The notes: generated by a model from the letters alone, not told the origin. Shown: positions 39,765 through 58,131, counted from the first letter of the stretch. The stretch: DNA of 64,000 nt from Candidatus Pacearchaeota archaeon (GCA_023136775.1 JAGLQO010000005.1:8198-72197), one strand, 5' to 3'. Program-made: numbers and translations.

Positions 39765-40523
39765 ATGGCTATAAAAAATATGAGAGAGGGGAAAAGGGGA
39801 CAAGTTACAATATTTATTATATTAGCAATAATAATAGTAGCGAGCGTTCTAACATTTTTCCTTTACGCAAAACCAACTTTTCTTTCCAAAGAAGGGACAA
39901 GGATAGGTTTTGATGGTTGTGTTCAAGATTCATTAGAACTAGCAATTTACGAATTAGAAAAAAATGGTGGATTTGTAGAGCCAGAATTTTCTTATACGCA
40001 CGAAGGAGAGGAAATATCTTATCTTTGTTATACAAATGAATATTATAAAACATGTACAGTCCAAGTTCCATTCTTATCAAGTCAAATTGACAACCAATTA
40101 GAAATAATAATGAGAGATAAAGTCGACAAATGTTATTCTGATTCAATAGAGGAATTAAAATCTCAAGGTTACGAAGTGACTGCAGGACGAGTTGATTACG
40201 ATGTGCTTTTAGAAACAGGAATTGTAAGAATGGAAATAAAAGCACCAACAGTTGTGGGTTCACAATCTTTCACAAAGTTTGATGTTAAATTAACTAGTCC
40301 AGTATATGACATGGCAATGATGGCAACTTCTCTTTTACAATTCGAAGCAACTTTTGGCGATACTGATTTAAATACAATGTCACAATATTATCCAGAGTAT
40401 AAGATTACAAAAATGAAAATGGGAGATGGAACAACTATTTATTCAATAGAAAGCAAAATTTTTGGCGACAAATTACAGTTTGCTAGTCGAAGCCTAGTTT
40501 TCCCAGCGGGGTATGATTTATAA
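39765..40523 (+). CDS. type IV pilin-like protein, class III signal peptide with Gln at +1, paralogue B
   Basis: MREGKRG|QVTIFIILAIIIVASV. CVQD...LCY...KTC...KCY pattern as in 35203. Confidence 0.6.
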   Translation: MAIKNMREGKRGQVTIFIILAIIIVASVLTFFLYAKPTFLSKEGTRIGFDGCVQDSLELAIYELEKNGGFVEPEFSYTHEGEEISYLCYTNEYYKTCTVQVPFLSSQIDNQLEIIMRDKVDKCYSDSIEELKSQGYEVTAGRVDYDVLLETGIVRMEIKAPTVVGSQSFTKFDVKLTSPVYDMAMMATSLLQFEATFGDTDLNTMSQYYPEYKITKMKMGDGTTIYSIESKIFGDKLQFASRSLVFPAGYDL

Positions 40524-40902
40524 AATGGATAAAGAAAAAACAAATACTAGCTTTATAGAGTGGATGGAAAAAGCAAAACAAGATTTAGACGTATCTAGGG
40601 ATAGTTTGAAATCCAATAATTTAGGTTGGGCAACTTTTCAAATACAACAATCAGCCGAAAAAGCACTTAAGTCGGTTTTAATAAAAAGAGAAAGTAGGTT
40701 GGTTAAAAATCATGATTTGGTTTATTTAGGAAACATGTTAAATTTACCTAAAAATTATCTAGATCATTGTAAAGAAATTAGTCAATTTTATGTGGTAAAT
40801 CGCTATCCAGACATTCCAGAAATAAATTTAACAAAAGAAAGAGTGGAAGAATATCTTTCTTGGGCTAAGGAGGTGCTAGAATGGTGCGAGAAACAGATTT
40901 GA
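40513..40902 (+). CDS. HEPN domain protein
   Basis: QQSAEKALKSVLIKRESRLVKNHDLVYL and a C-terminal NRYPD motif. Confidence 0.6.
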   Translation: MIYKMDKEKTNTSFIEWMEKAKQDLDVSRDSLKSNNLGWATFQIQQSAEKALKSVLIKRESRLVKNHDLVYLGNMLNLPKNYLDHCKEISQFYVVNRYPDIPEINLTKERVEEYLSWAKEVLEWCEKQI

Positions 40903-41198
40903 AGGTAGTCGAAAAATTCAAAGAAAAACTAACAAAAAGATTCCAAAATTCTAAAGTAATTTTATTCGGTTCCAGAGCAACGGGAAATTCCACAGAACAA
41001 AGTGATTTTGATTTAATTGTAGTAAGTGAAGCGTTTGAGGATAAAGATATAATAAAAAGAGGTTCTCTCATGTATGATGATTGGGATTATAATTTTGCAG
41101 TAGATTTTATTTGTTATACTCCCGAGGAATTTAAAGAAAAGGAATCCCGAGTGAGCATAGTTAGTGAAGCATTAAAAACAGGAGTAGTTATAAAATGA
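40881..41198 (+). CDS. minimal nucleotidyltransferase (MNT)
   Basis: LFGSRATGNSTEQSDFDLIVV. Confidence 0.65.
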   Translation: MVRETDLKVVEKFKEKLTKRFQNSKVILFGSRATGNSTEQSDFDLIVVSEAFEDKDIIKRGSLMYDDWDYNFAVDFICYTPEEFKEKESRVSIVSEALKTGVVIK

Positions 41199-44100
41199 GA
41201 TTCAATAAAAAAGGTTCAGCAGTATTACAGTTAACTTTAATGTTATTTTCAATGTTTGCGTTTGCATTCATTATGTCAGATAAGGCAATTGTAACTGCGA
41301 TAACTTCAGAGGCTAGTTATTGTTGTGAAAGAACAAGAGATGGTGCTTCTTGTCAAAATGCTCCAGAATCTGAATGTTCTCCAAGTGCCAAAGCCGCCCC
41401 AACTTCTTGTGAGTCAACCTCATATTGTAAAACAGGGACTTGTTATAATTCCAAAGAAGGACTTTGTATGTCAAATACTCCTCAGGTAACTTGCGAAGCA
41501 GATGGTGACAATACTTGGGATGCTAGACCAATGAATCAAGTTCCACAATGTCAACTAGGATGTTGCATAATTGCAGATCAAGCAGCATTTGTAACATTAA
41601 CAAAATGTAAAAAAATGTCTACAGAATTTGGAGTTGCAAATAATTATAGAAGCGATATTGCCGACGAGTTAAGCTGTATAGCAATGGCTCAATCTCAAGA
41701 TATGGGAGCTTGTGTCTACGAAAGAGATTATGAAAGAGTTTGTGATTTTACGACAAGAAATGAGTGTGGAGCAGCAGACGGAATAGAAACAAGTGAAGGT
41801 GCAGAAATAATTACTTCATCAGAAAAAAAATTCTATAAAGATTTCTTATGTTCAAATGATGATTTAGCGACCACGTGTGCAAGACAGGCAACAACTGAAT
41901 GTTATCAAGGTGATGTTTATTGGGTTGACTCTTGTGGGAATAAAGAAAATGTTTATGCGGGAGACAGTGATGCTGAAAAAGCAGACAGTTGGGCAAATGG
42001 TAAAGTTGCGAGTCCAAGTGTAAATGCAGAAGGTGATTGTAATTATTTAGCGGGAACTCGTTGTGCAGCAAAAGAAGGAATTTTTAATTCGGGGGTAGAA
42101 CACGAATGTAGATTAACAGTATGTAGAGATAGGGATGATAATCCAAGAAAAAATGGTGAATCATGGTGTGTTAGTCCAGGATTAGAGGGGGTTAATGAAT
42201 ATGATTACGATTATAAAAATCCAGGTGAATCCGATTACACAGGTTCAAGTGCAGATAAGGTAGGCTCAAGATATTTTAGAGAAATTTGTATAGATGGAGA
42301 AGTTGTTGTAGAACCATGTTCAGATTATAGAAATGAAATTTGTATACAAGATGAAATTATAACTCAAGATGTTTCGGAAGGTTTTGGAACAGCAGCATGT
42401 AGAGTGAACAGATGGCAAGATTGTGCAGCTCAAGTATGGCAAGATGATTGTGAAAGTGGAGCAAGAGATTGTCAATGGAGAATCCCAGTTAAGGGAATGA
42501 ATGTAGAAGAAAGTGTTCTTGGAAATTATGGAGTTTGTGTCCCAAATTTCCCACCAGGATTAAAATTTTGGGAAGACAGTAGTTCTGAAGAAGTTTGCAA
42601 GCAAGGGAATGTAGAATGTACTGTTGAGTTTGAAAGAGGTATCTTTGATAAAATTGGAGATTGGAAAGGAGGAGAAGGAGCTGGATTTGAAGCTAAGACT
42701 AATGAGGAATGTTTGGAAGAAGATTGGGCATTATCAGCAAATGGAATTTGTGCATCACTCGGTGACTGTGGAGGTTATGTAAATTATAACGAAGATTTAG
42801 GAGCAGGTGGATACAGATGGGTTTCAGCAACAAACGAAGATGGTCCATGGGAATCAGAAGTATTAAAATTTACATCATTAAAAAGTGAAATAAGATCATA
42901 TGTAACAGCGAACGTAGCGACATTAATAACAGGAAGAGCAATCGCAGGACTTGGAACTATAACTGGAATGGTAAGTCTGGGAGAGGCTTACGAACGAGAA
43001 TTATTAACTGCCTCAACATTTATTTATGGAGATCCAGATAGAGAAACATATACAATAGATAATCAAGGCACAGTTAGAAATACAAAAGGAACAAAATTTT
43101 ATCAAAATTCTGCAAATGAATGGGGCTATGGTCCAGCTGATAATTTCATTATATTGGATAAAAATAATCAGAATAAATTTACTCAGGATTATTTTAATAC
43201 TGCACATGCAAAATGGACTGTAGCAAAAAAGAATGTTGATAGTATACCTAAAACAGCACCAGGAACTATTCCAATGGGTGATGGAACAGGTACTGGAACA
43301 AGTGCCATACCAGTTTTGACTGACGCAGCAATGTTAGAACTAGCTAAATATGAATGTAATGTAGATGAATCAAGGGTTTGGAATAAAGCTACTAATACAT
43401 GTGATAGTATTTATAACCCAGAATATTGCAAAGGGATTAATAAGATTTATGTAGAGGGTGGATGTATAGACCCCATGCGATGTGCAGAATGTACATCCCA
43501 AGAATGTAATCCTGCCACAGGTAATTGTGATCTAAAAGATAGTGGAAAAGAATGTGGTTATCTAGATGGAATTGGAGATAATATTGTTACAGCAAAATAT
43601 ACATATTGTACAGATGAAACTAAAACTTGTCATGTAGATAAATGTATTCCAAAAGATGAAGCAAAAAAAATAACGAATGAAACTATAACAGGTCTTCTGG
43701 GGTTTGGAAAAGCTCTAATAATAGGCGGAGGAGCAGCATGGGCATCTTATCAGGGAGCTGCAATGTTTGGAGGAATATTGGGATTTGATGAAGGTGAAAC
43801 AAAAACCTTGCAAGAGTCAGCGGCTATAGCAGCTGGAATATATGCATTCACTACAAAATGGAGTGCAACTTCTAAAACTAAATGGGCATCACCATGGACT
43901 GCAGGAGCAATAGCTGTAGCTTATTTTGCATTGACATATAGAGACACAGAAAGTATAACAGTAGAATTTCAATGTTTACCTTGGGAAGCACCAGATGGAA
44001 CTGATTATGATTGTGAAGTATGTAATGACGACACCCTCCCATGTTCAGAATATAGGTGTAGAAGTTTGGGACTTAATTGCGAGATAGTAAACAAAGGAAC

Positions 44101-45502
44101 TACGGAAGAAAAATGTGTAAATGTAAATCCAAACGATGTGAATCAACCAATAGTAATACCAAGTTATAGTGCATTGGCAGATGATTATTCATATTCAAAT
44201 GTAGTAACGTCACCTCCAAGTCCAGGATTTACAATAACTAACGATGCTAGTGATAATGGATGCATTCCAGCATTTACTCCAGTACAATTTGGGATATATA
44301 CAACAGATGGAGAGGATGGACGAGGAGAACCAGCCCAATGTAAAATAGATTTCGAACATACAACAAGTTATGAAGAAATGAGATCTTATATGGGTTCAAG
44401 TAATCTTTACAAATATAATCACTCAGAATATATCACCCTACCTACAGCAAGAGAGATTGAAAATTCATCACTAAGTATAGAAAATGGAAAAGATCTAACA
44501 TTCTTCATAAGATGTAAAGATAAAACAGGAAACATAAATGAGGCAGAATATTCAGTTAACTTCTGCGTAGATCCAACGCCAGATACGACAGCTCCAAAAA
44601 TAATTGCGACCTCAATTAAAGATGGATCATGTGTCGGAGAAGGTCAAAAGACAGCTCCTGTAAAATTCTATACAGACGAACCATCTTATTGTAAATGGAG
44701 TAATCAAGATCAAGATTATGATAGTATGGCAAATGAGATGGTTTGTTCTAGAAGGGCTGATAATAATTTACTATATCCTTGCAGTGCAGAACTCTCAGGG
44801 ATACCAATGGACGGAGCTGATTTCTACATAAGATGTGAAGATGATGGAGAAACGCATAACAATCCAAGAGGAAGCGAATTTAACAACAAGATGAAAGAAA
44901 GCCTTAAGTTTTCTTTGAGAGGAAGCACTGGACTTCTAATGAGAAATTTGCAACCTAATGGAAGTGAGATAATTTACGGAGCAATAAGCCCAATGCCAGT
45001 AGAACTCTATGCAGAAACATCAATGGGTTGTGACAACGGTTTAGCAACTTGTGCATATTCAGATGAATATTCTGAAACGGGCTCAGGATATATTGATTTC
45101 TTTGATACAAATAATGAAGACGGAATTCATACACAATTATTGAATCTAGAAGAAGATACTCACGAGTATTTCATTCGATGCATCGATGCTGGGGGAAATA
45201 TTATAGAAGATAGTATAGAATTCAAATTAGATATTGACGAAGACGCCCCAATTGTTGCAAGAGTATACGAAGAAGCGGGAATGTTAAAGATAGTAACAGT
45301 GCGAGATAGTGAATGTTCTTATAGTTTCGAAAGTTGTGCTTTCGAGTTTGATGAAGGAACGGTGATGCCATATCCAAATTCAACAATCCACGTAGCAGAA
45401 TGGAGTCCAGATAAAACATTCTTTATAAAATGTAGGGACGAATTTAGAAACGTAGAAGATGGCTGTTCTATAACAGTTCGTCCAACGAAAGATTTCCTTT
45501 GA
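41195..45502 (+). CDS. giant Cys-rich envelope protein, paralogue 2
   Basis: 1435 aa. N-terminal anchor LTLMLFSMFAFAFIMSD similar to paralogue 1. Internal hydrophobic ITGLLGFGKALIIGGGAAWASYQGAAMFGGILGF...AGAIAVAYFALTY. Conserved C-terminal blocks CLPWEAPDG...CNDDTLPCSEYRCRSLGLNCE and ...ARVYEEAGMLKIV...SECSYSFESCAFEFDEG. Confidence 0.6.
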   Translation: MRFNKKGSAVLQLTLMLFSMFAFAFIMSDKAIVTAITSEASYCCERTRDGASCQNAPESECSPSAKAAPTSCESTSYCKTGTCYNSKEGLCMSNTPQVTCEADGDNTWDARPMNQVPQCQLGCCIIADQAAFVTLTKCKKMSTEFGVANNYRSDIADELSCIAMAQSQDMGACVYERDYERVCDFTTRNECGAADGIETSEGAEIITSSEKKFYKDFLCSNDDLATTCARQATTECYQGDVYWVDSCGNKENVYAGDSDAEKADSWANGKVASPSVNAEGDCNYLAGTRCAAKEGIFNSGVEHECRLTVCRDRDDNPRKNGESWCVSPGLEGVNEYDYDYKNPGESDYTGSSADKVGSRYFREICIDGEVVVEPCSDYRNEICIQDEIITQDVSEGFGTAACRVNRWQDCAAQVWQDDCESGARDCQWRIPVKGMNVEESVLGNYGVCVPNFPPGLKFWEDSSSEEVCKQGNVECTVEFERGIFDKIGDWKGGEGAGFEAKTNEECLEEDWALSANGICASLGDCGGYVNYNEDLGAGGYRWVSATNEDGPWESEVLKFTSLKSEIRSYVTANVATLITGRAIAGLGTITGMVSLGEAYERELLTASTFIYGDPDRETYTIDNQGTVRNTKGTKFYQNSANEWGYGPADNFIILDKNNQNKFTQDYFNTAHAKWTVAKKNVDSIPKTAPGTIPMGDGTGTGTSAIPVLTDAAMLELAKYECNVDESRVWNKATNTCDSIYNPEYCKGINKIYVEGGCIDPMRCAECTSQECNPATGNCDLKDSGKECGYLDGIGDNIVTAKYTYCTDETKTCHVDKCIPKDEAKKITNETITGLLGFGKALIIGGGAAWASYQGAAMFGGILGFDEGETKTLQESAAIAAGIYAFTTKWSATSKTKWASPWTAGAIAVAYFALTYRDTESITVEFQCLPWEAPDGTDYDCEVCNDDTLPCSEYRCRSLGLNCEIVNKGTTEEKCVNVNPNDVNQPIVIPSYSALADDYSYSNVVTSPPSPGFTITNDASDNGCIPAFTPVQFGIYTTDGEDGRGEPAQCKIDFEHTTSYEEMRSYMGSSNLYKYNHSEYITLPTAREIENSSLSIENGKDLTFFIRCKDKTGNINEAEYSVNFCVDPTPDTTAPKIIATSIKDGSCVGEGQKTAPVKFYTDEPSYCKWSNQDQDYDSMANEMVCSRRADNNLLYPCSAELSGIPMDGADFYIRCEDDGETHNNPRGSEFNNKMKESLKFSLRGSTGLLMRNLQPNGSEIIYGAISPMPVELYAETSMGCDNGLATCAYSDEYSETGSGYIDFFDTNNEDGIHTQLLNLEEDTHEYFIRCIDAGGNIIEDSIEFKLDIDEDAPIVARVYEEAGMLKIVTVRDSECSYSFESCAFEFDEGTVMPYPNSTIHVAEWSPDKTFFIKCRDEFRNVEDGCSITVRPTKDFL

Positions 45503-45506
45503 TAAA

Positions 45507-45797
45507 ATGAATAAGAAAATGATAATCAATGAAATTGAAAAAAGACGTGAAAAACTAAAAGATAAAGGTGTTAAAAAAATTGGATTATTCGGATCATATT
45601 TGAAAGGAACGCAGAAAAAAGGAAGTGATATAGATTTTTTAGTTACTTTTGAAAAAGAAAATTTAGGGAAGAATTATTTTAAAGTCTTGTTTTATTTAGA
45701 AAATCTATTTAAGAGGAAAATTGATTTAGTTGCAGTTCAGTCATTAAGACCAGAATTAAATTATGTAAAAAAGGAAGCTGTATATGCCAAAATATGA
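45507..45797 (+). CDS. nucleotidyltransferase antitoxin-like (MntA-type)
   Basis: GLFGSYLKGTQKKGSDIDFLV. Confidence 0.6.
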   Translation: MNKKMIINEIEKRREKLKDKGVKKIGLFGSYLKGTQKKGSDIDFLVTFEKENLGKNYFKVLFYLENLFKRKIDLVAVQSLRPELNYVKKEAVYAKI

Positions 45798-46104
45798 TTT
45801 AAATTTAAATTTAATCAAGGAAATGATTGAAAGAATTGAAGTAGATTTAAATAAATCTCTAGAAGATAAAACTGTTTGGGATGCCACTCTTATGAGGTTT
45901 CAAGTTATGGGAGAAAATATTGACAAACTACCAAGAGAAGTTCTTAAAAAACATAATGAAATAAATTGGAGAAAATATTACGCTTTTAGAAATTCAATAA
46001 GTCACACTTATAATGATATTCTAATAGAAGTTATTGCCGATTTAATTAGCGAATTACCAGTTTTAAAAAGAGCAATTGTAAAAATTAAGAGAGAGATAAA
46101 ATGA
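45784..46104 (+). CDS. HepT/DUF86-like HEPN toxin
   Basis: FRNSISHTY (R-x4-6-H HEPN motif). Overlaps the upstream NTase gene. Confidence 0.55.
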   Translation: MPKYDLNLNLIKEMIERIEVDLNKSLEDKTVWDATLMRFQVMGENIDKLPREVLKKHNEINWRKYYAFRNSISHTYNDILIEVIADLISELPVLKRAIVKIKREIK

Positions 46105-46162
46105 AATATAAAAAAGCACAGCAAACAAGAGGTTTAATAATAATTAAGACGGAGTATATACT

Positions 46163-46540
46163 ATGAAAATAGAAATCTCAGATTGGATAAAGCAAGCACA
46201 AGTAGATTTAGGTACGGCAAGATATAATCTCCAAGGAAAAATTTATTACGCAAGTGCTTTTTTTTCACAACAATCGGTAGAAAAAGCTCTAAAAGCATAT
46301 TATATTCAGGAAAAAAATACTATAAAGAAAACTCATAGTGTGAGCTCTCTAGCTAAAGAACTTAAGCTTCCAAAAGAACTTTTATCTAAAATAATAGAAC
46401 TTGAAGAAATACATAGAACTGCAAGATATCCAGGCATAAGTCAAAAAATTCCCTCAGAAGAAATAGAGGAAGAAGATGCTATAAATTTTTGTAATATTGC
46501 ACAGGAGGTCTTAAAATGGATAGAAATCAAAGTGAAGTAA
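46163..46540 (+). CDS. HEPN domain protein
   Basis: QQSVEKALKAYYIQ...KTHSVSSL...HRTARYPG. Confidence 0.6.
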   Translation: MKIEISDWIKQAQVDLGTARYNLQGKIYYASAFFSQQSVEKALKAYYIQEKNTIKKTHSVSSLAKELKLPKELLSKIIELEEIHRTARYPGISQKIPSEEIEEEDAINFCNIAQEVLKWIEIKVK

Positions 46541-46836
46541 TAAAGTTAATTAAAAACTTTAAAAATAAAATAAAAAATATTAAATTAGATAAAGTAATAT
46601 TATTTGGTTCATACTCAAAAGGGACACAAAAAAGAGGAAGCGATATTGATTTATTAGTTATTTCAAATGATTTTGAAAATATTAAATCATTCAAACGAGC
46701 AAACGATTTATATCTAAATTGGGATATAGACATAGACATAGATTTTATTTGCCTAACAAATGAAGAATTAAGAATTAAGAAAAATCAAATTGGCATAGTT
46801 AGTGAAGCACTAAAAACAGGAGTGGTTATAAAATGA
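46516..46836 (+). CDS. minimal nucleotidyltransferase (MNT)
   Basis: LFGSYSKGTQKRGSDIDLLVIS. C-terminal SEALKTGVVIK identical to the MNT at 40881. Confidence 0.65.
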   Translation: MDRNQSEVIKLIKNFKNKIKNIKLDKVILFGSYSKGTQKRGSDIDLLVISNDFENIKSFKRANDLYLNWDIDIDIDFICLTNEELRIKKNQIGIVSEALKTGVVIK

Positions 46837-47324
46837 AATATAAAAAAGCACAACAAACAATGAGTATGCCATTTGGTATGATATTCGCAATTTTTCTAAT
46901 TATAGTTTTTGTAGTTTTTGCATTTATGGCGGTCGGTGGATTTTTAGATATTGGGAAAAGTGCAGATGTTGGAATGTTCTATGACGAATTACAAGAAGAA
47001 GTAAATGACGCTATGCGTGGACAATCAAGTGAATCCACTTTTAGAATAAATTTACCAAAAAAGATTAAGCAAGTTTGTTTTGCTAATCTGTCAGCAACAA
47101 TTACAAACCCAGGTTCAGAGTACGATGCAATTAGAAATTATGAAGTTTATGAAGCCAATACATTTTTGCTTCCACCAGAATTTGCGTCAAATATGCAATG
47201 GAAAATGATTGACCATATTGATGTAGCAAAAATAACAGCTACAAAAAATCCCTATTGTGTAAATGTCAAAGACGACCTAAAAATAAAGAAGAGTTTTTAT
47301 GATAGAAAAGTTACAATAGCATAG
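46833..47324 (+). CDS. type IV pilin-like protein (class III signal, KKA|QQ)
   Basis: MKYKKA|QQTMSMPFGMIFAIFLIIVFVVFAF. Confidence 0.5.
   Translation: MKYKKAQQTMSMPFGMIFAIFLIIVFVVFAFMAVGGFLDIGKSADVGMFYDELQEEVNDAMRGQSSESTFRINLPKKIKQVCFANLSATITNPGSEYDAIRNYEVYEANTFLLPPEFASNMQWKMIDHIDVAKITATKNPYCVNVKDDLKIKKSFYDRKVTIA
47216..47324 (+). repeat. direct repeat copy 1 (3' end of pilin gene 46833-47324)
   Basis: About 90% identical to 47981-48090. Confidence 0.7.
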
Positions 47325-47361
47325 GAGATTAATTTTTATAAATTAGGAAGGGAACAATTTT

Positions 47362-47502
47362 GCTCTCAGGACTTCTAGAGATTGTTTGGATTAAGACAGG
47401 GGCAGGAAATTGAGATATAAAAAGACAATTAACATGAATATTAGATATTATAATTAAGCATATTTGCATTGAATCTTCTAAATCTATTAAAGTCCTGAGA
47501 GC
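47362..47502. mobile_element. MITE-like element bounded by 12-bp inverted repeats gctctcaggact / agtcctgagagc
   Basis: IRs at 47362-47373 and 47491-47502. The same 12-mer recurs at 56397 and as agtcctgag at 33847, both at other insertion junctions. Confidence 0.35.
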
Positions 47503-47556
47503 TGTTTGTCTTGAGGAATTAGTTAATTATTTAAATTCCAATTTATTAAATAATAT

Positions 47557-47757
47557 ATGGATTTTAATATAATAATTGAAAAAGGAGAAGATGGGTATTT
47601 ATTATCTGAAGTAATTGAGCTTCCTGGTTGTAGAACTCAAGCTAAAGATATGAATGAACTTCTTAAAAGAACAAAAGAGGTTATTACTCTTTATTTGCAA
47701 GTAGAGGAAATGTCAACAAGAAACAGTTTTTTAGGAGTACAAAAAATAGCAGTTTAA
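47557..47757 (+). CDS. hicB: HicB-family antitoxin
   Basis: EDGYLLSEVIELPGCRTQAKDMNELLKRTKEVI. Confidence 0.65.
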   Translation: MDFNIIIEKGEDGYLLSEVIELPGCRTQAKDMNELLKRTKEVITLYLQVEEMSTRNSFLGVQKIAV

Positions 47758-47758
47758 T

Positions 47759-47986
47759 ATGCAAAAATTACCTCAGTTAACTGCCAATCAATTTATCAAA
47801 ATTTTATTTAAATTAGGTTTCAAAGCTATAAGGCAATCTGGAAGTCATGTATTCTTAAGGCATGAAGATGGTAGAACGACAGTAATCCCAAATCATCCTG
47901 GAGAGAAATTGGATAGGGGACTATTAAATAAAATATTAAAAAAGGATGTACAAATTTCTAGAGATGAACTTTTAGAATTAATTTAG
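47759..47986 (+). CDS. hicA: HicA-family mRNA interferase toxin
   Basis: GFKAIRQSGSHVFLRHEDGRTTVIPNHPGEKLDRGLL. Confidence 0.65.
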   Translation: MQKLPQLTANQFIKILFKLGFKAIRQSGSHVFLRHEDGRTTVIPNHPGEKLDRGLLNKILKKDVQISRDELLELI

Positions 47987-48090
47987 ATATAGCAAAAATA
48001 ACAGCTACAAAAAATCCCTATTGTGTAAATGTTAAAGACGACCTAAAAATAAAGAAGGGTTTTCATAATAGAAAAGTTACAATAGAATAA
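47981..48090 (+). repeat. direct repeat copy 2 (orphan duplicate of the pilin gene 3' end, including a stop)
   Basis: atttagatatagcaaaaataacagctacaaaaaatccctattgtgtaaatgttaaagacgacctaaaaataaagaag... Confidence 0.7.
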
Positions 48091-48135
48091 TATAAGAAAT
48101 TTAACCGCTTCCTTTAAAAAAACTATTTACATTAT

Positions 48136-49098
48136 ATGACAATGAGAAAGATAGTGAAAAAAGGACAATTTAATTTTGCATGGCTCTTTGCAATTTTAGC
48201 AGGAGCTGCAATTTTATTCTTAGCAATTTTTGGAGCAATGAAAACAGGAGACACCGCAAGATTCCAAACAGATACTCAAGTTGCAAAACAAATCTCAATT
48301 TTAACAGACCCTCTGCAAGCAGGATTTAGCGAAGGTTCATTTGGAAGCATCTCATTTAAAAAAGAAACCCGTGTAAATAATATTTGTTTTTCAGATGAAT
48401 TTGGTAAAAACGACATATCAGTCTCGACGAAAAGTGAAGTAGGAGAAGAGTGGAACTTACCAGGAGCAACGATATCAATTCATAATAAATATATATTTTC
48501 TAAAGAGAGAAGTTCGGGATTAGATTATTATGTCTTATCAAAACCATTTAACCTCCCATATAAAGTAGCAGATTTAATATTTATGATTTCAGAAAATTAT
48601 TGTTTTACAGGTGCCCCCGAAGAAATAGAAACAGAAATATTAGGACTCGGAATTCCGAACATAGAAATAAATAACTGCACAGTCTCAGACTCAATAAAAG
48701 TATGTTTCTCGTCCACTTCTAATTGTGACATAGTAGTTTCAGGATCATGCTATACAAACTGTGATTCACTCTACGACAAGGGAACGGTGATAAAAAAAGA
48801 CTCTAATGAGGACGTAAATTTCGTAGGGAATTTAATGTATGCAGCAATATTTTCAGATAAAAGAAACTACGACTGTAATGTAAAAAGATTGCTTTACAGA
48901 ACTAAAAAAATCGCAAGAGAATTGTCAGAAAAAACTGCGATAATGAGTACAAGAGGTTGTACGAGTTCACTTAATAGCGATTTAGTAATTTGGGAATCCA
49001 TGCTAAATAGCACGACCCCAGATACCATAGATAATCTTTTAGGGGATTTAGAAGAACTTGAAAATAAAAATTATAGGGAACAGTGTAATTTATGGTAA
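48136..49098 (+). CDS. type IV pilin-like protein (class III signal, KKG|QF), Cys-containing 320-aa
   Basis: MTMRKIVKKG|QFNFAWLFAILAGAAILFLAIF. Confidence 0.5.
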   Translation: MTMRKIVKKGQFNFAWLFAILAGAAILFLAIFGAMKTGDTARFQTDTQVAKQISILTDPLQAGFSEGSFGSISFKKETRVNNICFSDEFGKNDISVSTKSEVGEEWNLPGATISIHNKYIFSKERSSGLDYYVLSKPFNLPYKVADLIFMISENYCFTGAPEEIETEILGLGIPNIEINNCTVSDSIKVCFSSTSNCDIVVSGSCYTNCDSLYDKGTVIKKDSNEDVNFVGNLMYAAIFSDKRNYDCNVKRLLYRTKKIARELSEKTAIMSTRGCTSSLNSDLVIWESMLNSTTPDTIDNLLGDLEELENKNYREQCNLW

Positions 49099-49595
49099 AA
49101 AAAGCACAAATGCAGATTCAACAAATGTCATTTATGTTAATAGCAGTGTTTATATTCTTCGCATTAGTCGGGATGTTTTTTCTAAGAGTTCAAGTTGGAG
49201 GAATAAAGGGGAGTGCCGCACAATTACAAAAAGAACAAGCGATTTCTTCATTGCAAGTTATAGCAGATATGCCAGAATTGAACTTTGACTGCAAAGAATC
49301 CATGACATTAGATAAAGATAAATTACTAATAATGTCAGGAGATTTTGGACAAGATTATGATTTATTTTGGCCGGTAGCCTCAGTTGAAGTTTTCAAAGCA
49401 TATCCAGCATTTGACTCCCAAATAGAATGCCCAGCTCCGAATTGTAATTATTACAATGTCTATAATAACAGCCAATTAAATAGCAAGAAATTCGCGACAT
49501 TCGTATCAATATGTAGCAAGGAACGAGAATCTGGTTCAGTTTACACCAGATGTAACATAGGTAAATTAGTGGTAGGAATAATAAACAATGAATAA
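49092..49595 (+). CDS. type IV pilin-like protein (class III signal, KKA|QM)
   Basis: MVKKA|QMQIQQMSFMLIAVFIFFALVGMF. Confidence 0.5.
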   Translation: MVKKAQMQIQQMSFMLIAVFIFFALVGMFFLRVQVGGIKGSAAQLQKEQAISSLQVIADMPELNFDCKESMTLDKDKLLIMSGDFGQDYDLFWPVASVEVFKAYPAFDSQIECPAPNCNYYNVYNNSQLNSKKFATFVSICSKERESGSVYTRCNIGKLVVGIINNE

Positions 49596-50082
49596 AAAAG
49601 CTCAACAAGAAATCGTAGGATTTGTTTTAATTGTAGTGGTCGTAATGGTGGGATTAATGATATATTTAACAATGTCGCTTAGAAGCTCCCCAGAAAACGA
49701 AGGGAGTTTAGAGGTCGCGAACGCACTAGACGCATTAATGAAACAAACAACAGAATGCGCAGTAGTATATGTTCCAAATTATGACACCTTCGAAGATTTA
49801 TTCAAAAGTGCATATAAAGGAGAAAGTTGTACTAATTTAAACAAACCAGCAAGAGAATACCTAGAAGAAGCTTCTAGGGAAGTTTTAACAGACATGATGG
49901 CAAGTGAGTCCTCGGTTATGGCATATGAATTACAGTTTGCAGAAAAAAATTCCGAAGGAGCGATACAAGGATTACTCATGTTCACTGAGGGAAACTGCAC
50001 AGGAAATGTAAATTCAGCAATGAGAACATTATCATCAGGCTCAGAAAGGTTACTAATAACATTAAAAACTTGTACTTTCTAA
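49588..50082 (+). CDS. type IV pilin-like protein (class III signal, KKA|QQ)
   Basis: MNKKA|QQEIVGFVLIVVVVMVGLMIYL. Confidence 0.5.
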   Translation: MNKKAQQEIVGFVLIVVVVMVGLMIYLTMSLRSSPENEGSLEVANALDALMKQTTECAVVYVPNYDTFEDLFKSAYKGESCTNLNKPAREYLEEASREVLTDMMASESSVMAYELQFAEKNSEGAIQGLLMFTEGNCTGNVNSAMRTLSSGSERLLITLKTCTF

Positions 50083-50441
50083 ATATTTATAATTATCTCA
50101 AGCTTATCAATCGCCAAAACAGGTCGAAGAGATTCCCTTTTTCCAGTTCTTTCCGCATGAAATTCAATAAATCCAAACCTTTCCAAAACCTTAATATCTT
50201 CTCGAACAGACTTAAAATCTCTCTTGAGACTTTTAGCCAAAGCATAAATCGACCGAGGTTCTTCAGTCTTCAAAATATGAAGTATCCGAGCTTTTTCATT
50301 ACTCAAAAGAGATCTCAAGAGCTTAACATCACTAAAGTCATGAGATTTTTTAGCTCCAGTTAACTTAGAGACAAAACTGTCTTTACTAACATTAACATCG
50401 ACATATCTTATTTTAGTTTTTAGTTTTTTCTTTGTTACCAT
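50079..50441 (-). CDS. HTH transcriptional regulator (ArsR-like fold)
   Basis: KARILHILKTEEPRSIYALAKSLKRDFKSVREDIKVLERFGFIEF. Confidence 0.45.
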   Translation of the reverse strand: MVTKKKLKTKIRYVDVNVSKDSFVSKLTGAKKSHDFSDVKLLRSLLSNEKARILHILKTEEPRSIYALAKSLKRDFKSVREDIKVLERFGFIEFHAERTGKRESLRPVLAIDKLEIIINI

Positions 50442-51894: not shown

Positions 51895-54288
51895 ATGAAA
51901 AAAATATTTAGAAAAGCTATAACAGTTTTAGGAAGTGCTGCTTTAATTGGTGCTACTGTAGGTGCGGCTGCTGCTGCTGCTTACCCTGCTCAATTTACAG
52001 CAAGTAACACAGTTATCGTTTACGGATCCGACTCTGGAGCCGCTGATAACATTGCTACTACAGCCCTAAATGCTGATTTATTATCTTTAGCTGCTGGTTC
52101 TACAACTACAACAACTGTTGAAGGTGGAGAAGTTTTTTCTTTAGGTAAAGATTCTGACGAGTTTGAATTTGGTTACAATTTATCTAGTGTTTTCACAAGC
52201 TTAGATGATGGTGAAATGGAAAGTTTCTTAGCTGATGGAGAATATGACGATGGAGTTATTGATTCTGAATTTTCTCAAGAGATTACTTTAGGTACTCAGG
52301 CATTAAGTTTATTCGCTGATACTGATTACGACGACGATAAGACTCCAACAATTGGATTCCATTTCGATGATACTGAAGTTTTATCTTACGAGATGACTTT
52401 GGATGATTCTGATGAAGTTTATGTAAACATGATAGATACTGAAATCCCATTAATGGGAAGAGAGTATTATGTTCTGGATGCAACAGCTGACGAGGTAACT
52501 CTATTGGATTCTGCTGAAAAGGTAGTTGTTACTGAAGGAGAAACAATAACTGTTGATGGTAAAACAATTTCTATATCTGTTGCTGCTGAAACATATGTAA
52601 GGTTTGTAGTTAATGGAGAAATGACTGATAAGTTACACGATTCTGGTACTGATTACGACTTGTATCAAGAATTAGATGATGGTTCTTATATAGTAGTATC
52701 TTCAAATGATTACAATGCTAAAGATAGTGGAATTAGTAGTGCTGAAATTTCTATTGGTAAAGGTAAGTTAACTTTATCTAATGATGGTGGAGAAGTTGAA
52801 ATAAACGATGAAACCGTTACTGGATTAACATCTTACGTATATTCTACTGGAACTACTCCAGTTAATGCTGTAGGCACAGAAGTAATCAAGTCTATTAAAT
52901 TGACTTGGACTACTGATGATGAAGAATTTTTAGTTGAAGGAGGAGCTATGGTTATGCCAGGCTTTGAAACAATCAAGGTTCTATTTGGTGGAATGAACTT
53001 TCCAGAAGACTCTGAAAAGATATCAATTGACAATGGAGAAACTGTTACATTAAACATGGAAAATTTCGATGTTGATTTAATGTATGCTACTACTGAAGCA
53101 AATGGTGTTCAAGGTGACGATGGTAATTTATTACACATTGATGCAACTCCGAGTTCCACAAAAACATATTTCCTAAAAGATGGAGATAGATTCTTGGCTA
53201 CTGATTTAGATGAAACTTTAAGTGAGGTTGAACAACTTTACTATGAAGTTACTACATTGAGGAATGATTCTAACGGATTTGACTTAGTGCTAAATGATTT
53301 AACAGATGCTGATAAAGACATACCATTTGATGATGATGAAGCTGACGAAACTGATACCTCTCGAGGTGACGTAGAGGTTAAGCTAAATTTAGTTTATGAA
53401 GATGGTGTTAATGTTACTGATGCTGATGCCGCATTAATTGATGCAGCAGGTTTATCTACCGCTCTATTGACTAGTTATCCTAGTGATAACTCTACATTAG
53501 TAGAGATTGCAAAGGTTACTGTTACTCAAGACGATAGTATTGATTTACATTTCGACAAGGTAGTTTCTGATACTGGTATGATTGTAGAGATCCCTGTAGC
53601 TGCTGATGTAGCAGATAACGACGATCTTTTAATCTTCTACGAAGCTAAAGATGATGGTGATTTAGAAACAACATTTTCATCTGCTACTGCTGATATCTAT
53701 GCCGATTTAGATTGGGATACTTCTGATGAATATGTATATGCAAATGAGAATTCTACTGCTATTACTTTCAAGGAAGAATCTGATAACAATTACATAGGTT
53801 ATGTTGAATCTGATTTAACATCTATGGTTAGTTATGATACAGACGCACACTCTTACGAAATAACATATTTCGGAGAAGAGGTTGTTGCTGACGTTTCAAT
53901 TGCATCTGCTGATGCTGTACTTTCTACTTCTACAGAATCTGGAAACTTAATTGTTTTAGATACTGATGCTGATAAGCTCGTTGGTAAAAACTTGATTGTT
54001 GTTGGTGGTTCTGCTATCAACCGTGTTGCTGCTGATTTACTTAGTTTAAATTACCCATCTTATGGTGCTGATTTCACTGAGAAGACTGGTATTGCTGACG
54101 GACAAGCTCTAATTGAAGTTTTCCCTTACAGTGGGAATACTGCTATATTAGTTGCTGGTTACACGGCTGCTGACACTGCAAAGGCTACAACTTACTTACT
54201 TCACGAATCCGAAGATTTCGATTTGGTTGAAGGAGCTAAGTTAAAAGTTACATCTGCTACTGAAGCTACTGTTGTTACTACTGCTTAA
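51895..54288 (+). CDS. S-layer-like acidic, Thr/Asp-rich secreted protein
   Basis: Signal peptide ...GAAAAAA|YPAQ. 797 aa with no Cys. GGAGG SD 8 nt upstream. Strong hairpin terminator downstream. Confidence 0.5.
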   Translation: MKKIFRKAITVLGSAALIGATVGAAAAAAYPAQFTASNTVIVYGSDSGAADNIATTALNADLLSLAAGSTTTTTVEGGEVFSLGKDSDEFEFGYNLSSVFTSLDDGEMESFLADGEYDDGVIDSEFSQEITLGTQALSLFADTDYDDDKTPTIGFHFDDTEVLSYEMTLDDSDEVYVNMIDTEIPLMGREYYVLDATADEVTLLDSAEKVVVTEGETITVDGKTISISVAAETYVRFVVNGEMTDKLHDSGTDYDLYQELDDGSYIVVSSNDYNAKDSGISSAEISIGKGKLTLSNDGGEVEINDETVTGLTSYVYSTGTTPVNAVGTEVIKSIKLTWTTDDEEFLVEGGAMVMPGFETIKVLFGGMNFPEDSEKISIDNGETVTLNMENFDVDLMYATTEANGVQGDDGNLLHIDATPSSTKTYFLKDGDRFLATDLDETLSEVEQLYYEVTTLRNDSNGFDLVLNDLTDADKDIPFDDDEADETDTSRGDVEVKLNLVYEDGVNVTDADAALIDAAGLSTALLTSYPSDNSTLVEIAKVTVTQDDSIDLHFDKVVSDTGMIVEIPVAADVADNDDLLIFYEAKDDGDLETTFSSATADIYADLDWDTSDEYVYANENSTAITFKEESDNNYIGYVESDLTSMVSYDTDAHSYEITYFGEEVVADVSIASADAVLSTSTESGNLIVLDTDADKLVGKNLIVVGGSAINRVAADLLSLNYPSYGADFTEKTGIADGQALIEVFPYSGNTAILVAGYTAADTAKATTYLLHESEDFDLVEGAKLKVTSATEATVVTTA

Positions 54289-54671: not shown

Positions 54672-55973
54672 CTAACCCCCTTTTACAATTTTCCAAGACC
54701 CTTCCTTCCTTCCCCCAACACGTTTCAAATAGCCATCTTTCTTTAAGTTATCAAGATGATATTTAACCCCATCTGCCGAAATATTGAGAACTTTAGCCAA
54801 CTCATTTCTCGTAATTTTAGAATTATTTAGGACTAATGAAAGAATCTTTTGGGTAGTCTTTTGGGTAGGAGCTGGGAAGTAGTTCTTACGCCTGAATGTT
54901 GTGATAAATATTTCTGCAACTTCTTTAAAATTAGCTGTTGGTTCTTCCGATAAAATTAAACTTATACCTCTTCCCCATTTTTCAACAAAATGTACATCAT
55001 GAAATAGATTTGCAATTATTTCATTTCTTCTTTTAGAAACCTTTTCCTTTCTAATTTGTTTAATTGTAAGTCCTCCATACAAACTTCCCGGATTTCTAAT
55101 TTCTAATCTATCTTTGAAAATAGCTATATTAACAGAATCATCGTCGTAATAATTTCTATGACAAAAAGCATTAATGATCGCCTCTCTAAAGGCATCTTTA
55201 TCTATTTCAGGGATATCAACCCTATACATTCCCTCAATTTTCATACCTATATGAATATTTTTCAAAATATATTCTTCTGCTTTTTCAATTAATTCAAATA
55301 AATCCCCTTCAAATTCTTGTCGATCAATAATCATTGATGTTTCAGTGGTTCCAAATACAGCACACCTTAACTTTGCATTCAAAAATCTTTTTTGGGGATT
55401 TTCCCCAAAGAGAATAATCGCAGCGTTAAGTAACTTCTTATTTTTTACTAGTCCTAATTTATTAAGAGAACTTTCGACAGATTCATATTCTTTACCGGAT
55501 TTTTTCAAAAACCACTTCAATCTCTTAATACTTATATCTTCTAACGTTGCATCTTCACAAATTTCTGTATCCCATCTTAATTTATCCTTATTCTTTTCTA
55601 AAATTATTTTTTCAAGTTCTTTGGCAGAAATCAATTTATCCTCGTCGGCAACCCGCATATAAGCCCGACCATTTGCATAATATGGAATATTGCCTCCCTG
55701 AAATTCTACCAAAATACATTTCCTCCCCTCTACCTCTTCTTCACGAATTTTTGGAAAAATCTTTGGCTCGATATTAGAAGAAATTTTTTGAGAAATATCT
55801 CTCAAAGTTTTTTCATTGATACTCTGTCCGATAACTTTACCATCAGAATTAATCCCAAAATAAATTTCTCCTTTTTGATGTTTGTTTAAAATACTCGAAA
55901 TTGAAATTATAGCCTCCTTTAATTCAGATGTAGATTTTTTGAATTCCAGCGTTTCGCTTTCTTTTTTATCCAT
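54672..55973 (-). CDS. AlbA_2 (divergent AAA/Schlafen-like DNA-binding) + HATPase_c_4 + C-terminal wHTH protein
   Basis: N-terminal ETLEFKKS...EIYFGINSDGKVIG. Middle AINAFCHRNYYDD. C-terminal wHTH ITRNELAKVLNISADGVKYHLDNLKKDGYLKR. Confidence 0.55.
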   Translation of the reverse strand: MDKKESETLEFKKSTSELKEAIISISSILNKHQKGEIYFGINSDGKVIGQSINEKTLRDISQKISSNIEPKIFPKIREEEVEGRKCILVEFQGGNIPYYANGRAYMRVADEDKLISAKELEKIILEKNKDKLRWDTEICEDATLEDISIKRLKWFLKKSGKEYESVESSLNKLGLVKNKKLLNAAIILFGENPQKRFLNAKLRCAVFGTTETSMIIDRQEFEGDLFELIEKAEEYILKNIHIGMKIEGMYRVDIPEIDKDAFREAIINAFCHRNYYDDDSVNIAIFKDRLEIRNPGSLYGGLTIKQIRKEKVSKRRNEIIANLFHDVHFVEKWGRGISLILSEEPTANFKEVAEIFITTFRRKNYFPAPTQKTTQKILSLVLNNSKITRNELAKVLNISADGVKYHLDNLKKDGYLKRVGGRKEGSWKIVKGG

Positions 55974-56041
55974 ATAATCGCCAAGTATCCTAATCTTTTA
56001 AATCTATTTTATGCAATGTAGCGAAGCTTTTACTTCTACCA

Positions 56042-56236
56042 TTGGTGTTGCTGACGGAGAATTCTCGAATCCAATCTTTCGATAGATCTGGAAAGACTGC
56101 TCTATTAGTTGCTGGTTACAGTGCAGCCGATACAACTAAAGCCGCTACTTATTTACTAAACGAAGACGTTGATACAACTGTCGGAGTTAAGGTAAAAGGT
56201 ACATCTGCTACTGAAGCTACTGTTGTAACTGCTTAG
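56042..56236 (+). pseudogene. orphan C-terminal fragment of an S-layer-like gene (second copy of the direct repeat)
   Basis: TALLVAGYSAADTTKAATYLLNED...GTSATEATVVTA parallels the C-terminus of 51895-54288. No upstream gene body. Confidence 0.55.
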
Positions 56237-56281
56237 ATCTTAAGTTAAAAAACAAATTTTTATTTTTTTATTTTTACTTTT

Positions 56282-56303
56282 GATTCGCCCTTCGGGGCGA
56301 ATC
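56282..56303 (+). terminator. second copy of gattcgcccttcggggcgaatc hairpin
   Basis: Seen directly. Confidence 0.45.
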
Positions 56304-56479
56304 AATATCTATTCTTGATTAATTTCGAGAAGAATTTTATTTTCTTTTGCCTATGTCGAGAGACTAAGTTTTTATCTAAATTCCTAAAACAAATTAGCTC
56401 TCAGGACTTTTGGGGATTTGAAGGATTCAAGGCAATAAATTGAATAATAATTTTTATTTAATCTACTAGCTAGTGTCTT

Positions 56480-56506
56480 AAATCCGTGAGAATCCGTGAG
56501 CAATTT
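56480..56506 (+). repeat. R2 core dimer aaatccgtgagaatccgtgagcaattt
   Basis: Seen directly. Confidence 0.5.
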
Positions 56507-56561
56507 CCCCTCCCTTGTCCCATATTTCAAAATTAGTATATTCCGACTAATTCATCCACGT

Positions 56562-56616
56562 TTGTTACACAAAATCGTAACATTTAAGTAGTATATGTTA
56601 CATTAAAATGTAACAT
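56562..56616. promoter_or_regulatory. operator-like palindromes tgttaca-N7-gtaaca and atgttacat-taaa-atgtaacat overlapping the start codon
   Basis: Perfect 9-bp inverted repeat with 4-bp spacer at 56595-56616. The last three bases are the ATG of the ATPase gene. Confidence 0.4.
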
Positions 56617-57907
56617 GGAAATTGGAAAATTAGTTGAATGGAATCCCTGGTGGGAAAATAAAAATTTACTAACCAATCTAACAGGTAAGCCCAGACCAGC
56701 ATACAATATACTAGTTAATTCTATTAAAATAAAAGAAATAACAATTATAACAGGCGTTAGAAGAGCAGGAAAAAGTACACTGATGTATCAAATGATAGAA
56801 AATTTGTTTGCTAAGAATATTGATCCAAAACAAATATTATTTGTTAATCTAGAAGACAAAACATTGTCTAAAGATTCTCTGGAAGATATTTATTTGACTT
56901 ACAGAAAAGATATTAATCCAGATAAACGAGCATACATTTTCCTTGACGAAATTCATAAAAGAGAAGGATGGGAAAGTTGGGTAAGGAAAAAATATGATCT
57001 TAAAACAAATGATAAATTTATTATTTCTGGATCATGTTCTTATTTGTTAAAGAAGGAATATTCAACATTATTGACTGGCAGAAATCTTACCTTTGAAGTA
57101 TTTCCCTCAAGCTTTGATGAATTTTTATTATTTAAAAAAGTAATTATTAACAAAAAAGATATAAAAAAAGGCATAATTTTGGAAAAAACAAAAAATTCTA
57201 TTCTAAAAAATCTTAATGAATATTTGAATATAGGAGGATTTCCAGAAATAGAGTTCAAACAAAAAGATTATCAGATGAAAATATTGAAACAGTATTTTGA
57301 TGATATTTTATTTAAAGATATAATAGATAGATTCAATTTGAATAGCCAGAAAACTGAAGACTTGGCATTATTTTTTATAACTAACGTTACAAGTTTAGTC
57401 TCCTTAAGAAATATAAGAAATTCGTTAAATTTATCCTATGATACCATTAAAGAATATATGTCACATTTTAAAGATGCCTTTTTGTTTTTTACCCTTGATT
57501 ATTTTTCATATTCTTTAAAGGAACAAAAGACAATGGCGTCTAAAGTATATTGTGTGGACAGTGGTTTAAGAAATGCAGTTTCATTTAAATTCTCTCGAGA
57601 CTTGGGAAAATTAGCAGAGAATTTAGTTTTTGTAGAATTGAAAAGAAGAGAAAATGAATTTTATTATTGGAAAACTCCAAAAGAAGAAGTCGATTTCGTA
57701 ATTAAAGAAAAAAACAATTCTTTGACTGCTATAAATGTCTCGTATACGGACGAAATTGATGATAGAGAAACTAGGGGACTCTTAAATTTTAATAAACAAT
57801 TTGAAAAATGTAAAAAATTGATTTTATTAACGAAGGATTTAGAAAAAAAAGAAAAGGGAATTTTATTTATTCCCTTATGGAAATGGTTAATAATAACTGA
57901 TAAATAA
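56615..57907 (+). CDS. AAA+ ATPase of the AAA_14/DUF4143 family
   Basis: Walker A GVRRAGKST, Walker B IFLDEIH. Family-typical N-terminus WNPWW. Confidence 0.6.
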   Translation: MEIGKLVEWNPWWENKNLLTNLTGKPRPAYNILVNSIKIKEITIITGVRRAGKSTLMYQMIENLFAKNIDPKQILFVNLEDKTLSKDSLEDIYLTYRKDINPDKRAYIFLDEIHKREGWESWVRKKYDLKTNDKFIISGSCSYLLKKEYSTLLTGRNLTFEVFPSSFDEFLLFKKVIINKKDIKKGIILEKTKNSILKNLNEYLNIGGFPEIEFKQKDYQMKILKQYFDDILFKDIIDRFNLNSQKTEDLALFFITNVTSLVSLRNIRNSLNLSYDTIKEYMSHFKDAFLFFTLDYFSYSLKEQKTMASKVYCVDSGLRNAVSFKFSRDLGKLAENLVFVELKRRENEFYYWKTPKEEVDFVIKEKNNSLTAINVSYTDEIDDRETRGLLNFNKQFEKCKKLILLTKDLEKKEKGILFIPLWKWLIITDK

Positions 57908-58131
57908 AAAATTAAATCATATTAACTAATATTGTTGCTCCCAAATCCTCAAAAATCAACAACACCAATTTCTTCAATATTATTTTCCTCATCCTCTTCA
58001 TCAATTAAATTTTTCAAAATCAATTATCCCACTTAATCATTTCAGCCAATCAATTTCACTTCAAAAATTAATTTTTAGAAAACCTAAAAAAGAATATAAC
58101 CTAATTAATCATAGAGTCACAATATTAGAAA

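Follow-up and report, generated by a model that had tools for sequence, protein, structure and literature searches.

Gene content of the locus

The stretch of DNA described here is 64,000 nucleotides (nt) from a Candidatus Pacearchaeota archaeon (GCA_023136775.1 JAGLQO010000005.1:8198-72197), and is referred to as the window. It contains a cluster of six small genes whose products begin like archaeal type IV pilin precursors, together with two genes for giant Cys-rich proteins. The gene content of the window is that of an archaeal core genome, with Pfam matches to a ribosomal protein operon, SecY, PCNA, primase and AglB/STT3; the G+C content is about 33%, and cell-envelope genes are abundant around the pilin-like genes. 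The cluster is located in the core chromosome of a member of the Pacearchaeota (DPANN).

The eight genes are listed below and are referred to by their start coordinates. A slash marks the putative cleavage junction, and lengths are in amino acids (aa).

35203 to 35985, plus strand: KRG/Q protein A, 260 aa, KRG/QVTLFIIL, likely start at 35218, a paralogue of 39765
35985 to 39737, plus strand: giant Cys-rich protein 1, 1250 aa, 5% Cys, N-terminus KKI/IASFE
39765 to 40523, plus strand: KRG/Q protein B, 252 aa, KRG/QVTIFIIL, likely start at 39780
41195 to 45502, plus strand: giant Cys-rich protein 2, 1435 aa, N-terminus KKG/SAVLQ
46833 to 47324, plus strand: pilin-like gene 1, 163 aa, MKYKKA/QQTMSMPFGMIFAIFLIIVFVVFAF, junction KKA/QQ
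48136 to 49098, plus strand: pilin-like gene 2, 320 aa, ..KIVKKG/QFNFAWLFAILAGAAILFLAIF, junction KKG/QF, ten Cys
49092 to 49595, plus strand: pilin-like gene 3, 167 aa, MVKKA/QMQIQQMSFMLIAVFIFFALVGMFF, junction KKA/QMQIQQM
49588 to 50082, plus strand: pilin-like gene 4, 164 aa, MNKKA/QQEIVGFVLIVVVVMVGLMIYL, junction KKA/QQEIVGF

An earlier sequence-only reading of the window had described four pilin-like genes with A/G-Gln N-termini, and all four are present on the plus strand with the coordinates and junctions that it gave. The two upstream genes that it counted as pilin-like, 35203 and 39765, also have the KRG/Q junctions described. Gene 49092 overlaps 48136 by 7 nt and is itself overlapped by 49588 by 8 nt, while 48136 has an alternative start at 48142, which is the start used by NCBI.

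The N-terminal motif within the window

All six small proteins have the same N-terminal architecture, namely a short basic leader, a [KR]-[G/A] junction, Gln, and then a hydrophobic helix. The hydrophobic core had been described as following directly on the Gln, but it begins 4-8 residues further on. Open reading frames (ORFs) of at least 60 aa, taken from the first ATG (n=105), were searched for [KR][GA]Q with a hydrophobic 18-mer after it. The motif is found in 6 of the 105, every one of them inside the cluster (46833, 48136, 49092, 49588, 35203 and 39765). When the N-termini were shuffled 300 times, the mean number of ORFs with the motif was 0.04 and the maximum was 1, so that the observed number is far outside chance. 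An N-terminal hydrophobic segment is present in 21 ORFs of the window, and [KR][GA]Q occurs in the six cluster genes and in none of the other 15. A looser six-frame scan in the manner of FlaFind ([KR][GA] ahead of a strongly hydrophobic stretch) returned the same six genes, the giant 41195, and false starts internal to SecY.

Distribution and synteny

Relatives of the locus were collected by scanning one genome per GTDB species. This gave 206 relatives of the 320-aa protein, of which the best 80 loci were analysed; all 80 come from metagenome-assembled genomes (MAGs) labelled Pacearchaeota, Woesearchaeota, Nanoarchaeota or simply "archaeon". The order of genes in these relatives is PCNA, (KRGQ protein), giant 1, KRGQ protein, giant 2, followed by 46833, 48136, 49092, 49588, a helix-turn-helix (HTH) protein on the minus strand, an S-layer-like protein, and relatives of the window genes 59206, 59763 and 60486. 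The run 46833-48136-49092-49588 is kept in 56 of the 80 species loci; most of those without the full order are cut by contig ends, and two have gene pairs permuted. Orthologues of 49092 are present in 77 related loci and those of 49588 in 66. The median intergenic gaps within the four-gene run are 1, 11 and 12 nt. Across the 80 loci the orthologues are about 24-70% identical to the window proteins, which is comparable to or above the identity of the neighbouring S-layer-like protein.

In database searches the 320-aa protein (48136) has 727 homologues, and among the 120 matches listed the identity is 54-67% and all of the named ones are "hypothetical". The 163-aa protein (46833) has 146 close homologues, and an exhaustive HMMER search (E <= 0.001) matched 870 representatives of 50%-identity clusters; the close members listed do not connect the family to any known one. 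Many database entries for the 46833 family are 154-aa products that start at an internal Met just past the putative cleavage site. The signal is therefore missing from many entries, because gene callers begin after the putative cut site. One 133-kb relative (L089; GCA_013166765.1, JABKBV010000002.1) has Pacearchaeota-type synteny and was deposited as "Methanococcoides sp. SA1", a label that may reflect mis-binning or may hint at a co-cultured symbiont and host.

Literature searches returned no published description of an operon of this composition (six pilin-like proteins and two giants, with no linked machinery, beside S-layer genes). The operon with its two giants, kept in at least 80 related species, probably encodes an undescribed cell-surface structure.

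Conservation of the junction across orthologues

The residue before the putative cut site (position -1) is Gly or Ala in practically all members of the five families (46833, 48136, 49092, 49588, and 39765/35203 as one), Ser replacing them in a few distant members; counts for the wider 46833 family are G 56, A 50 and S about nine. Positions -2 and -3 are Lys or Arg across all five. Gln at +1 is present in 75-97% of members in four of the five families: 63/70 for 46833 (80/106 among its cluster representatives at 50% identity), 65/70 for 49092, 56/57 for 49588 and 32/33 for 39765. The fifth, 48136, has Gln in only 30 of 77 members, namely the close relatives; in distant ones F, Y, E, I or L takes its place, and the -1 residue stays G/A. 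The length of the leader upstream of the junction varies from 3 to about 50 residues among orthologues. Conservation continues into the residues that follow: the 49092 family retains [KR][GA]/Q[MLF]KIQQMAF as its N-terminus, Q6, E8, G11 and F12 are invariant in the 49588 family, and in the 39765 alignment Q13 is invariant and G12 nearly so.

Control families of single-pass membrane proteins from the same loci are mostly without the motif (29 of 38 members for 59206, 22 of 33 for 59763). Comparison of the five families using hhalign shows that they are mutually unrelated save for the junction and the helix, and in two of the pairwise comparisons the best local alignment covers just 9-10 columns spanning KKGQ. 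Sites cut by a class III (prepilin) signal peptidase are marked by just this combination: a small residue kept constant at -1, basic residues before it, and an unconstrained leader. To our knowledge, no other type of signal is cut on the N-terminal side of its hydrophobic core. These alignments support the view that the shared N-terminal module behaves in evolution like a class III (prepilin-type) signal.

Predicted structures

AlphaFold2 models were made for 48136 and 46833, using the window sequences together with database homologues, and were read at the level of secondary structure. The model of 48136 (predicted local distance difference test score, pLDDT, 88.8; predicted template modelling score, pTM, 0.82) has a helix at residues 14-56, a β-rich domain and a C-terminal helical domain. 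That of 46833 (pLDDT 84) has a helix at residues 14-62 followed by six short β-strands. As modelled, both therefore have one continuous N-terminal helix, 43-49 residues long and hydrophobic along its first half, with a β domain after it; this is the layout of a type IV pilin.

The outer parts of the proteins are rich in Cys. Two are invariant in the 46833 family (C82 and C142), the 48136 protein of the window has its ten in this part, and the 49092, 49588 and 39765 families have four invariant or near-invariant Cys each. Conserved Cys in the outer domains are consistent with an extracellular location and with disulfides.

The giant Cys-rich proteins

The pairs 35203/35985 and 39765/41195 are a diverged duplication, in which the small proteins are 28% identical (over 252 aa, E = 4e-28) and the giants 27-30%. 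Further copies of the module, each a KRGQ protein with a giant-like protein, occur in some species as a third copy (L008:7351-9466, L053:6995-7726, L076:1233-4605), which indicates that the module duplicates repeatedly.

The two giants, each 5% Cys, contain 64 and 74 Cys residues and a hydrophobic central block rich in Gly and Ala. Giant 1 has an N-terminal hydrophobic helix containing a Glu, and a C-terminal Cys-rich region in which Ig-like domains are detected in orthologues. In most relatives giant 2 is encoded by two genes; the N-half carries a Sec-type signal, the C-half begins in pilin-like fashion, and Ig-like Big_13 domains are found in 14 of 32 orthologues of the C-half. The giants of the window itself have no Pfam match. 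Giant 1 and the C-gene of giant 2 start with [KR][KR]x/xASF followed by E or Q, and then a hydrophobic helix, with Glu or Gln at about +5. Their -1 residue is G, A or S in only about two thirds of cases, and is I, L or F in some species. All eight products of the operon thus have starts that look prepilin-like at the sequence level, and processing of the giants is doubtful in some species.

Neighbouring genes and toxin-antitoxin insertions

The following features lie within or beside the cluster. The nucleotidyltransferase is abbreviated NTase.

40513 to 41198, plus strand: HEPN/NTase toxin-antitoxin cassette, from precomputed Pfam annotation
45507 to 46104, plus strand: NTase/HepT toxin-antitoxin cassette, from Pfam
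46163 to 46836, plus strand: HEPN/NTase toxin-antitoxin cassette, from Pfam
47557 to 47986, plus strand: hicB/hicA cassette, between 46833 and 48136
50079 to 50441, minus strand: HTH protein, Pfam HVO_A0114 (E = 1.2e-17), convergent to the cluster
51895 to 54288, plus strand: S-layer-like protein, 797 aa, weak match to S_layer_C that is stronger in an orthologue

The sequence-only reading had called the four pilin-like genes consecutive, and placed them directly downstream of the duplicated module. Neither description holds in the window, where hicBA and a relic of the 3' end of 46833 part this gene from 48136, and where two toxin-antitoxin pairs intervene between giant 2 and 46833. Two relics of 46833 are present. 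A 33-nt copy of its start (46096-46128, compared with 46828-46860) is 97% identical, and a 122-nt copy of its 3' end (47981-48102, compared with 47215-47336) is 89% identical. The cassettes at 46163-46836 and 47557-47986 are thus flanked by pieces of 46833, which suggests duplication of the target by insertion or recombination. The last 109 nt of two of the NTase genes, together with the start codons that follow them (41101-41209 and 46739-46847), are 74% alike. In compact relatives such as L008 the cluster genes abut with no cassette between them, and there is no cassette at the site corresponding to 40513-41198. The toxin-antitoxin cassettes are secondary insertions, and the one at 40513-41198 is lineage-specific and lies outside the system. 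Genes for NTase, HEPN and HepT occur at differing points of the operon in at least 13 other species (L007-L088; for example L007:9126-10011 and L015:1246-1575), and such cassettes appear to have landed in this operon repeatedly.

The HTH protein adjoins the cluster in 62 related loci, and is a possible regulator of it. The S-layer-like gene is syntenic downstream of the cluster in 43 related loci; it is a conserved neighbour, and a candidate member of the system only. In relatives the S-layer-like gene is in synteny with a trio of small membrane proteins (59206-59766, 59763-60485 and 60486-60962), of which two have no family match and one matches Sm_multidrug_ex. In the window a block of Schlafen/AlbA_2, AAA_14/DUF4143 and Bro-N genes (54672-58893) is inserted between the S-layer-like gene and the trio. 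Further along is a C-terminal sorting system near the pilin-like operon: a pacearchaeosortase (61142-61681, minus strand; NF033505, 153 bits) adjoins a PACE-CTERM putative S-layer protein (NF033506, 286 bits), which runs on the minus strand from 63010 past the end of the window. At the other side of the window, 9754-11598 (614 aa) and 11653-12975 (440 aa) encode secreted proteins with Sec-type signal peptides and no match in Pfam or NCBIfam.

Interpretation

The reading that we favour, with confidence somewhat better than even, is that the six small proteins are processed pilin-like subunits that form a hetero-oligomeric surface complex with the giants. The four families are single-copy, distinct, conserved and translationally coupled, and subunits resembling minor pilins or pseudopilins therefore fit better than a major pilin. 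Three features point to a stoichiometric complex: each gene occurs once and in a fixed order, stop codons overlap start codons, and the set is retained together in at least 56 species.

The proposed course of events is as follows. The proteins would insert with the N-terminus inside, and an aspartic class III signal peptidase of the FlaK/PibD/EppA type, encoded elsewhere in the genome, would cut after the Gly or Ala at the cytoplasmic face. The new N-terminal Gln may then cyclise. The four translationally coupled subunits and the two KRG/Q proteins would bundle through their N-terminal helices, giving a short hetero-oligomeric complex of the pseudopilus-like or tip/priming type, with no long homopolymer. 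This complex would hold or present the two giant Cys-rich Ig-domain proteins, and together they would make up a surface structure conserved among these host-dependent archaea, encoded amid genes for the S-layer, pacearchaeosortase and N-glycosylation.

A number of results weigh against this reading. The first group concerns the signal itself. In the family alignments there is no Glu at +5, and polar residues are found at +2, +3 and +6 instead. The putative cut site is set apart from the hydrophobic core by a conserved polar spacer of 3-8 residues (QFNFxW, QMKIQQMAF, QEE[IM]VGF, QQTMGMPFG). Checked against a FlaFind-type core pattern that expects the hydrophobic stretch from +1 ([KRDE][GA][ALIFQMVED][ILMVTAS]x3, which may differ from that of the published program), the four families pass in 0/62, 0/58, 0/71 and 6/71 members, and they fail because the polar spacer precedes the core. 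By the same pattern, 34 of the 37 sequences in the upstream KRGQ family pass.

The second group concerns homology. Searches of Pfam, NCBIfam and PHROGs with the six small proteins and both giants gave nothing significant, and none of Pilin_N, Class_IIIsignal (PF04021/DUF361) and the NCBIfam pilin models was above threshold. When Pfam was run on 71 and 58 orthologues, it returned sub-threshold noise only (DUF7248, DUF7289, and Pilin_N in 2 of 58 with E = 0.047). Profiles of the five families and of the C-half of the giant found nothing significant among PDB sequences, and Foldseek searches of the PDB with the models of 48136 and 46833 gave no match at E <= 0.001, pilins included. The sole hint is that the 46833 profile weakly matches the N-terminal helix of the type IV pilin PilE1 (8pfb_G, E = 0.013). 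The description of these genes as type IV pilin precursors is partly supported, by the conservation of a class III signal-like N-terminus and by the helix and β layout of the two models; it finds no significant counterpart in pilin profiles or folds.

The third group concerns the machinery. The sequence-only reading had found no assembly ATPase or platform gene in the window, and Pfam scans bear this out, with no match to the A24 peptidase, the T2SSE ATPase or the T2SSF platform. By exact protein match the window sits, in reverse orientation, on contig DAOWHN010000006.1 (102,228 bp) of assembly GCA_030641395.1, and NCBI lists an identical protein under "Candidatus Pacearchaeota archaeon". The flanks on this contig were also read, 8.3 kb on the left (to the contig end; glycosylation genes) and 7.7 kb on the right (FtsZ, ribosomal and SepF genes), making about 80 kb of the 102-kb contig in all, and they are without A24, T2SSE and T2SSF genes too. 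Neither the window nor its flanks contain a locus of the type IV filament (TFF) "system 1", with EppA and twin platform genes. In about 80 species the 10 kb around the cluster are likewise free of genes for a peptidase, an ATPase or a platform protein, and a scan of all ORFs of 88 loci for the Walker A motif of T2SSE and the GxGD motif of A24 gave no candidate. A search of 1.07 Mb of related loci for additional class-III-like ORFs that could be a major pilin found none that was convincing.

Published surveys differ as to whether such machinery is to be expected. According to a preprint on groundwater, type IV pilus components are absent from DPANN genomes (10.1101/2020.05.14.094862), a further point against the favoured reading. 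A lake study reports flaI, flaJ and flaK in most of its Woesearchaeota MAGs (PMC11606122), and system 1 (Epd-like) occurs in some DPANN (bioRxiv 10.64898/2026.04.22.720090). The genes flaI, flaJ and flaK have also been reported in Nanoarchaeota and Woesearchaeota generally.

Several of these results are what would be expected if the proteins were uncleaved type II (N-in, C-out) signal anchors, in which K-K-G/A-Q is a positive-inside juxtamembrane contact motif and the envelope complex with the giants involves neither peptidase nor filament. This would explain the lack of a peptidase or machinery gene near the cluster, the failure of the four families to match the FlaFind-type pattern with their polar, family-specific residues after the Gln, the lack of a pilin fold or profile match, and the I, L or F at -1 in the giants of some species, which is unsuited to a prepilin peptidase. 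However, it leaves unexplained why, in five unrelated families whose members diverge to about 25% identity, the basic residues are still followed at once by a small residue (-1) and by Gln (+1), while the leader before them varies freely. Other single-pass proteins of the same loci are mostly without the motif. We regard this main alternative as somewhat unlikely.

In a different alternative, the class III signal serves only as a general route of export and anchoring, and the proteins have no structural partnership. There is a precedent in the sugar-binding proteins of the Sulfolobus bindosome, which are processed by PibD. The outer domains in the cluster are mutually unrelated, and no major pilin or machinery gene is found nearby, as this alternative would predict. 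The strict gene order, the overlapping codons and the co-conservation in at least 56 species speak against it, as does the fact that no enzyme or binding-protein domain was detected, and we consider it quite improbable.

Finally, an integrated virus or mobile element, with the proteins as virion or entry proteins, is brought to mind by the four toxin-antitoxin cassettes inside the operon and by the RhuM and Bro-N genes nearby, but is rejected as a highly implausible origin, given that the same order is kept between PCNA and the S-layer gene in about 80 species, including compact versions without cassettes, that the cassettes arrived secondarily and have duplicated gene ends on either side, and that the eight proteins have no significant PHROG match (giant 1 has a weak one, E = 0.0036, to an unannotated family), no relative in IMG/VR and, in a Foldseek search with the 48136 model, no fold match in BFVD.

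The favoured complex of processed subunits and giants can be taken a step further, to a self-contained organelle specific to the Pacearchaeales and Woesearchaeales, in which a short heteromeric pseudopilus of six different subunits carries two "giant modular pilins" and serves for attachment to a host or for membrane contact, with a remote link or none to an ATPase and platform. This more specific proposal is rather doubtful. The Pacearchaeota and Woesearchaeota are abundant and uncultured, have reduced genomes, and are believed to be attached to hosts. Eight conserved genes without family annotation, beside S-layer genes and with prepilin-like starts, are a concrete candidate for an attachment apparatus.

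Comparison with known systems

Proteins with class III signal peptides, belonging to the type IV filament superfamily, are a known kind. The signal seen here is a variant in that Gln occupies +1, a polar spacer follows and Glu is absent from +5. The closest resemblance in the signal is to the EppA-dependent Epd/DUF361 pilins of Methanococcus maripaludis, in which, too, a short basic leader terminates in a small residue and Gln follows at +1 (PMC3875500). In that study the leaders of EppA substrates have 5-13 residues and end in Gly. The sequence-only reading had taken a preference of EppA for Gln at +1 as established; the same paper does name this residue, stating that it "may be required". 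The Epd system also includes several different pilin-like proteins of 70-300 aa, some of them encoded away from the ATPase locus (PMC3875500; bioRxiv 10.64898/2026.04.22.720090). The proteins described here differ in having a polar spacer, and in lacking the +5 Glu and a match to PF04021. Their outer domains are without detectable homology, and no epd-type ATPase, twin platform genes or EppA are found nearby.

In organisation, the cluster resembles the priming and tip complexes of minor pilins and pseudopilins. These comprise GspH-I-J-K in the type II secretion system (T2SS), and FimU-PilV-W-X with the large PilY1 adhesin in type IVa pili (T4aP). In both cases about four pilin-like genes, all different and each present once, follow a set order within an operon, and here too they lie beside genes for very large surface proteins. 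The likeness is an organisational analogy, by which the stoichiometry would imply a heteromer and no homopolymer. No homology to the GspHIJK or PilVWX-FimU families is found by profile, PDB-sequence or fold comparison; the signal is of the archaeal type and lacks G/F or M-xxx-E, and no major pilin or machinery is linked. Unlike large proteins of the PilY1 type, the giants have hydrophobic N-termini of their own and a central hydrophobic block.

Two further systems offer partial parallels. In the modular pilin PilB of Streptococcus sanguinis a pilin N-module is grafted onto a larger outer domain (PMC8179133), an arrangement that fits the 320-aa protein and possibly the giants. The giants differ from it in their size of 1250-1435 aa, in the lack of a small -1 residue in some species, and in that Ig-like Big_13 is the sole adhesin domain recognised. 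The bindosome proteins have a prepilin-type signal without the need for a long pilus, and their genes are located away from the ATPase (PMC4858521). They differ in having solute-binding or enzyme domains, none of which is found here, and the six proteins here are co-conserved as one operon. If the signal is processed as proposed, the range of prepilin-type signals would be widened, to include a polar spacer after Gln +1 and possibly giant pilin-like proteins.

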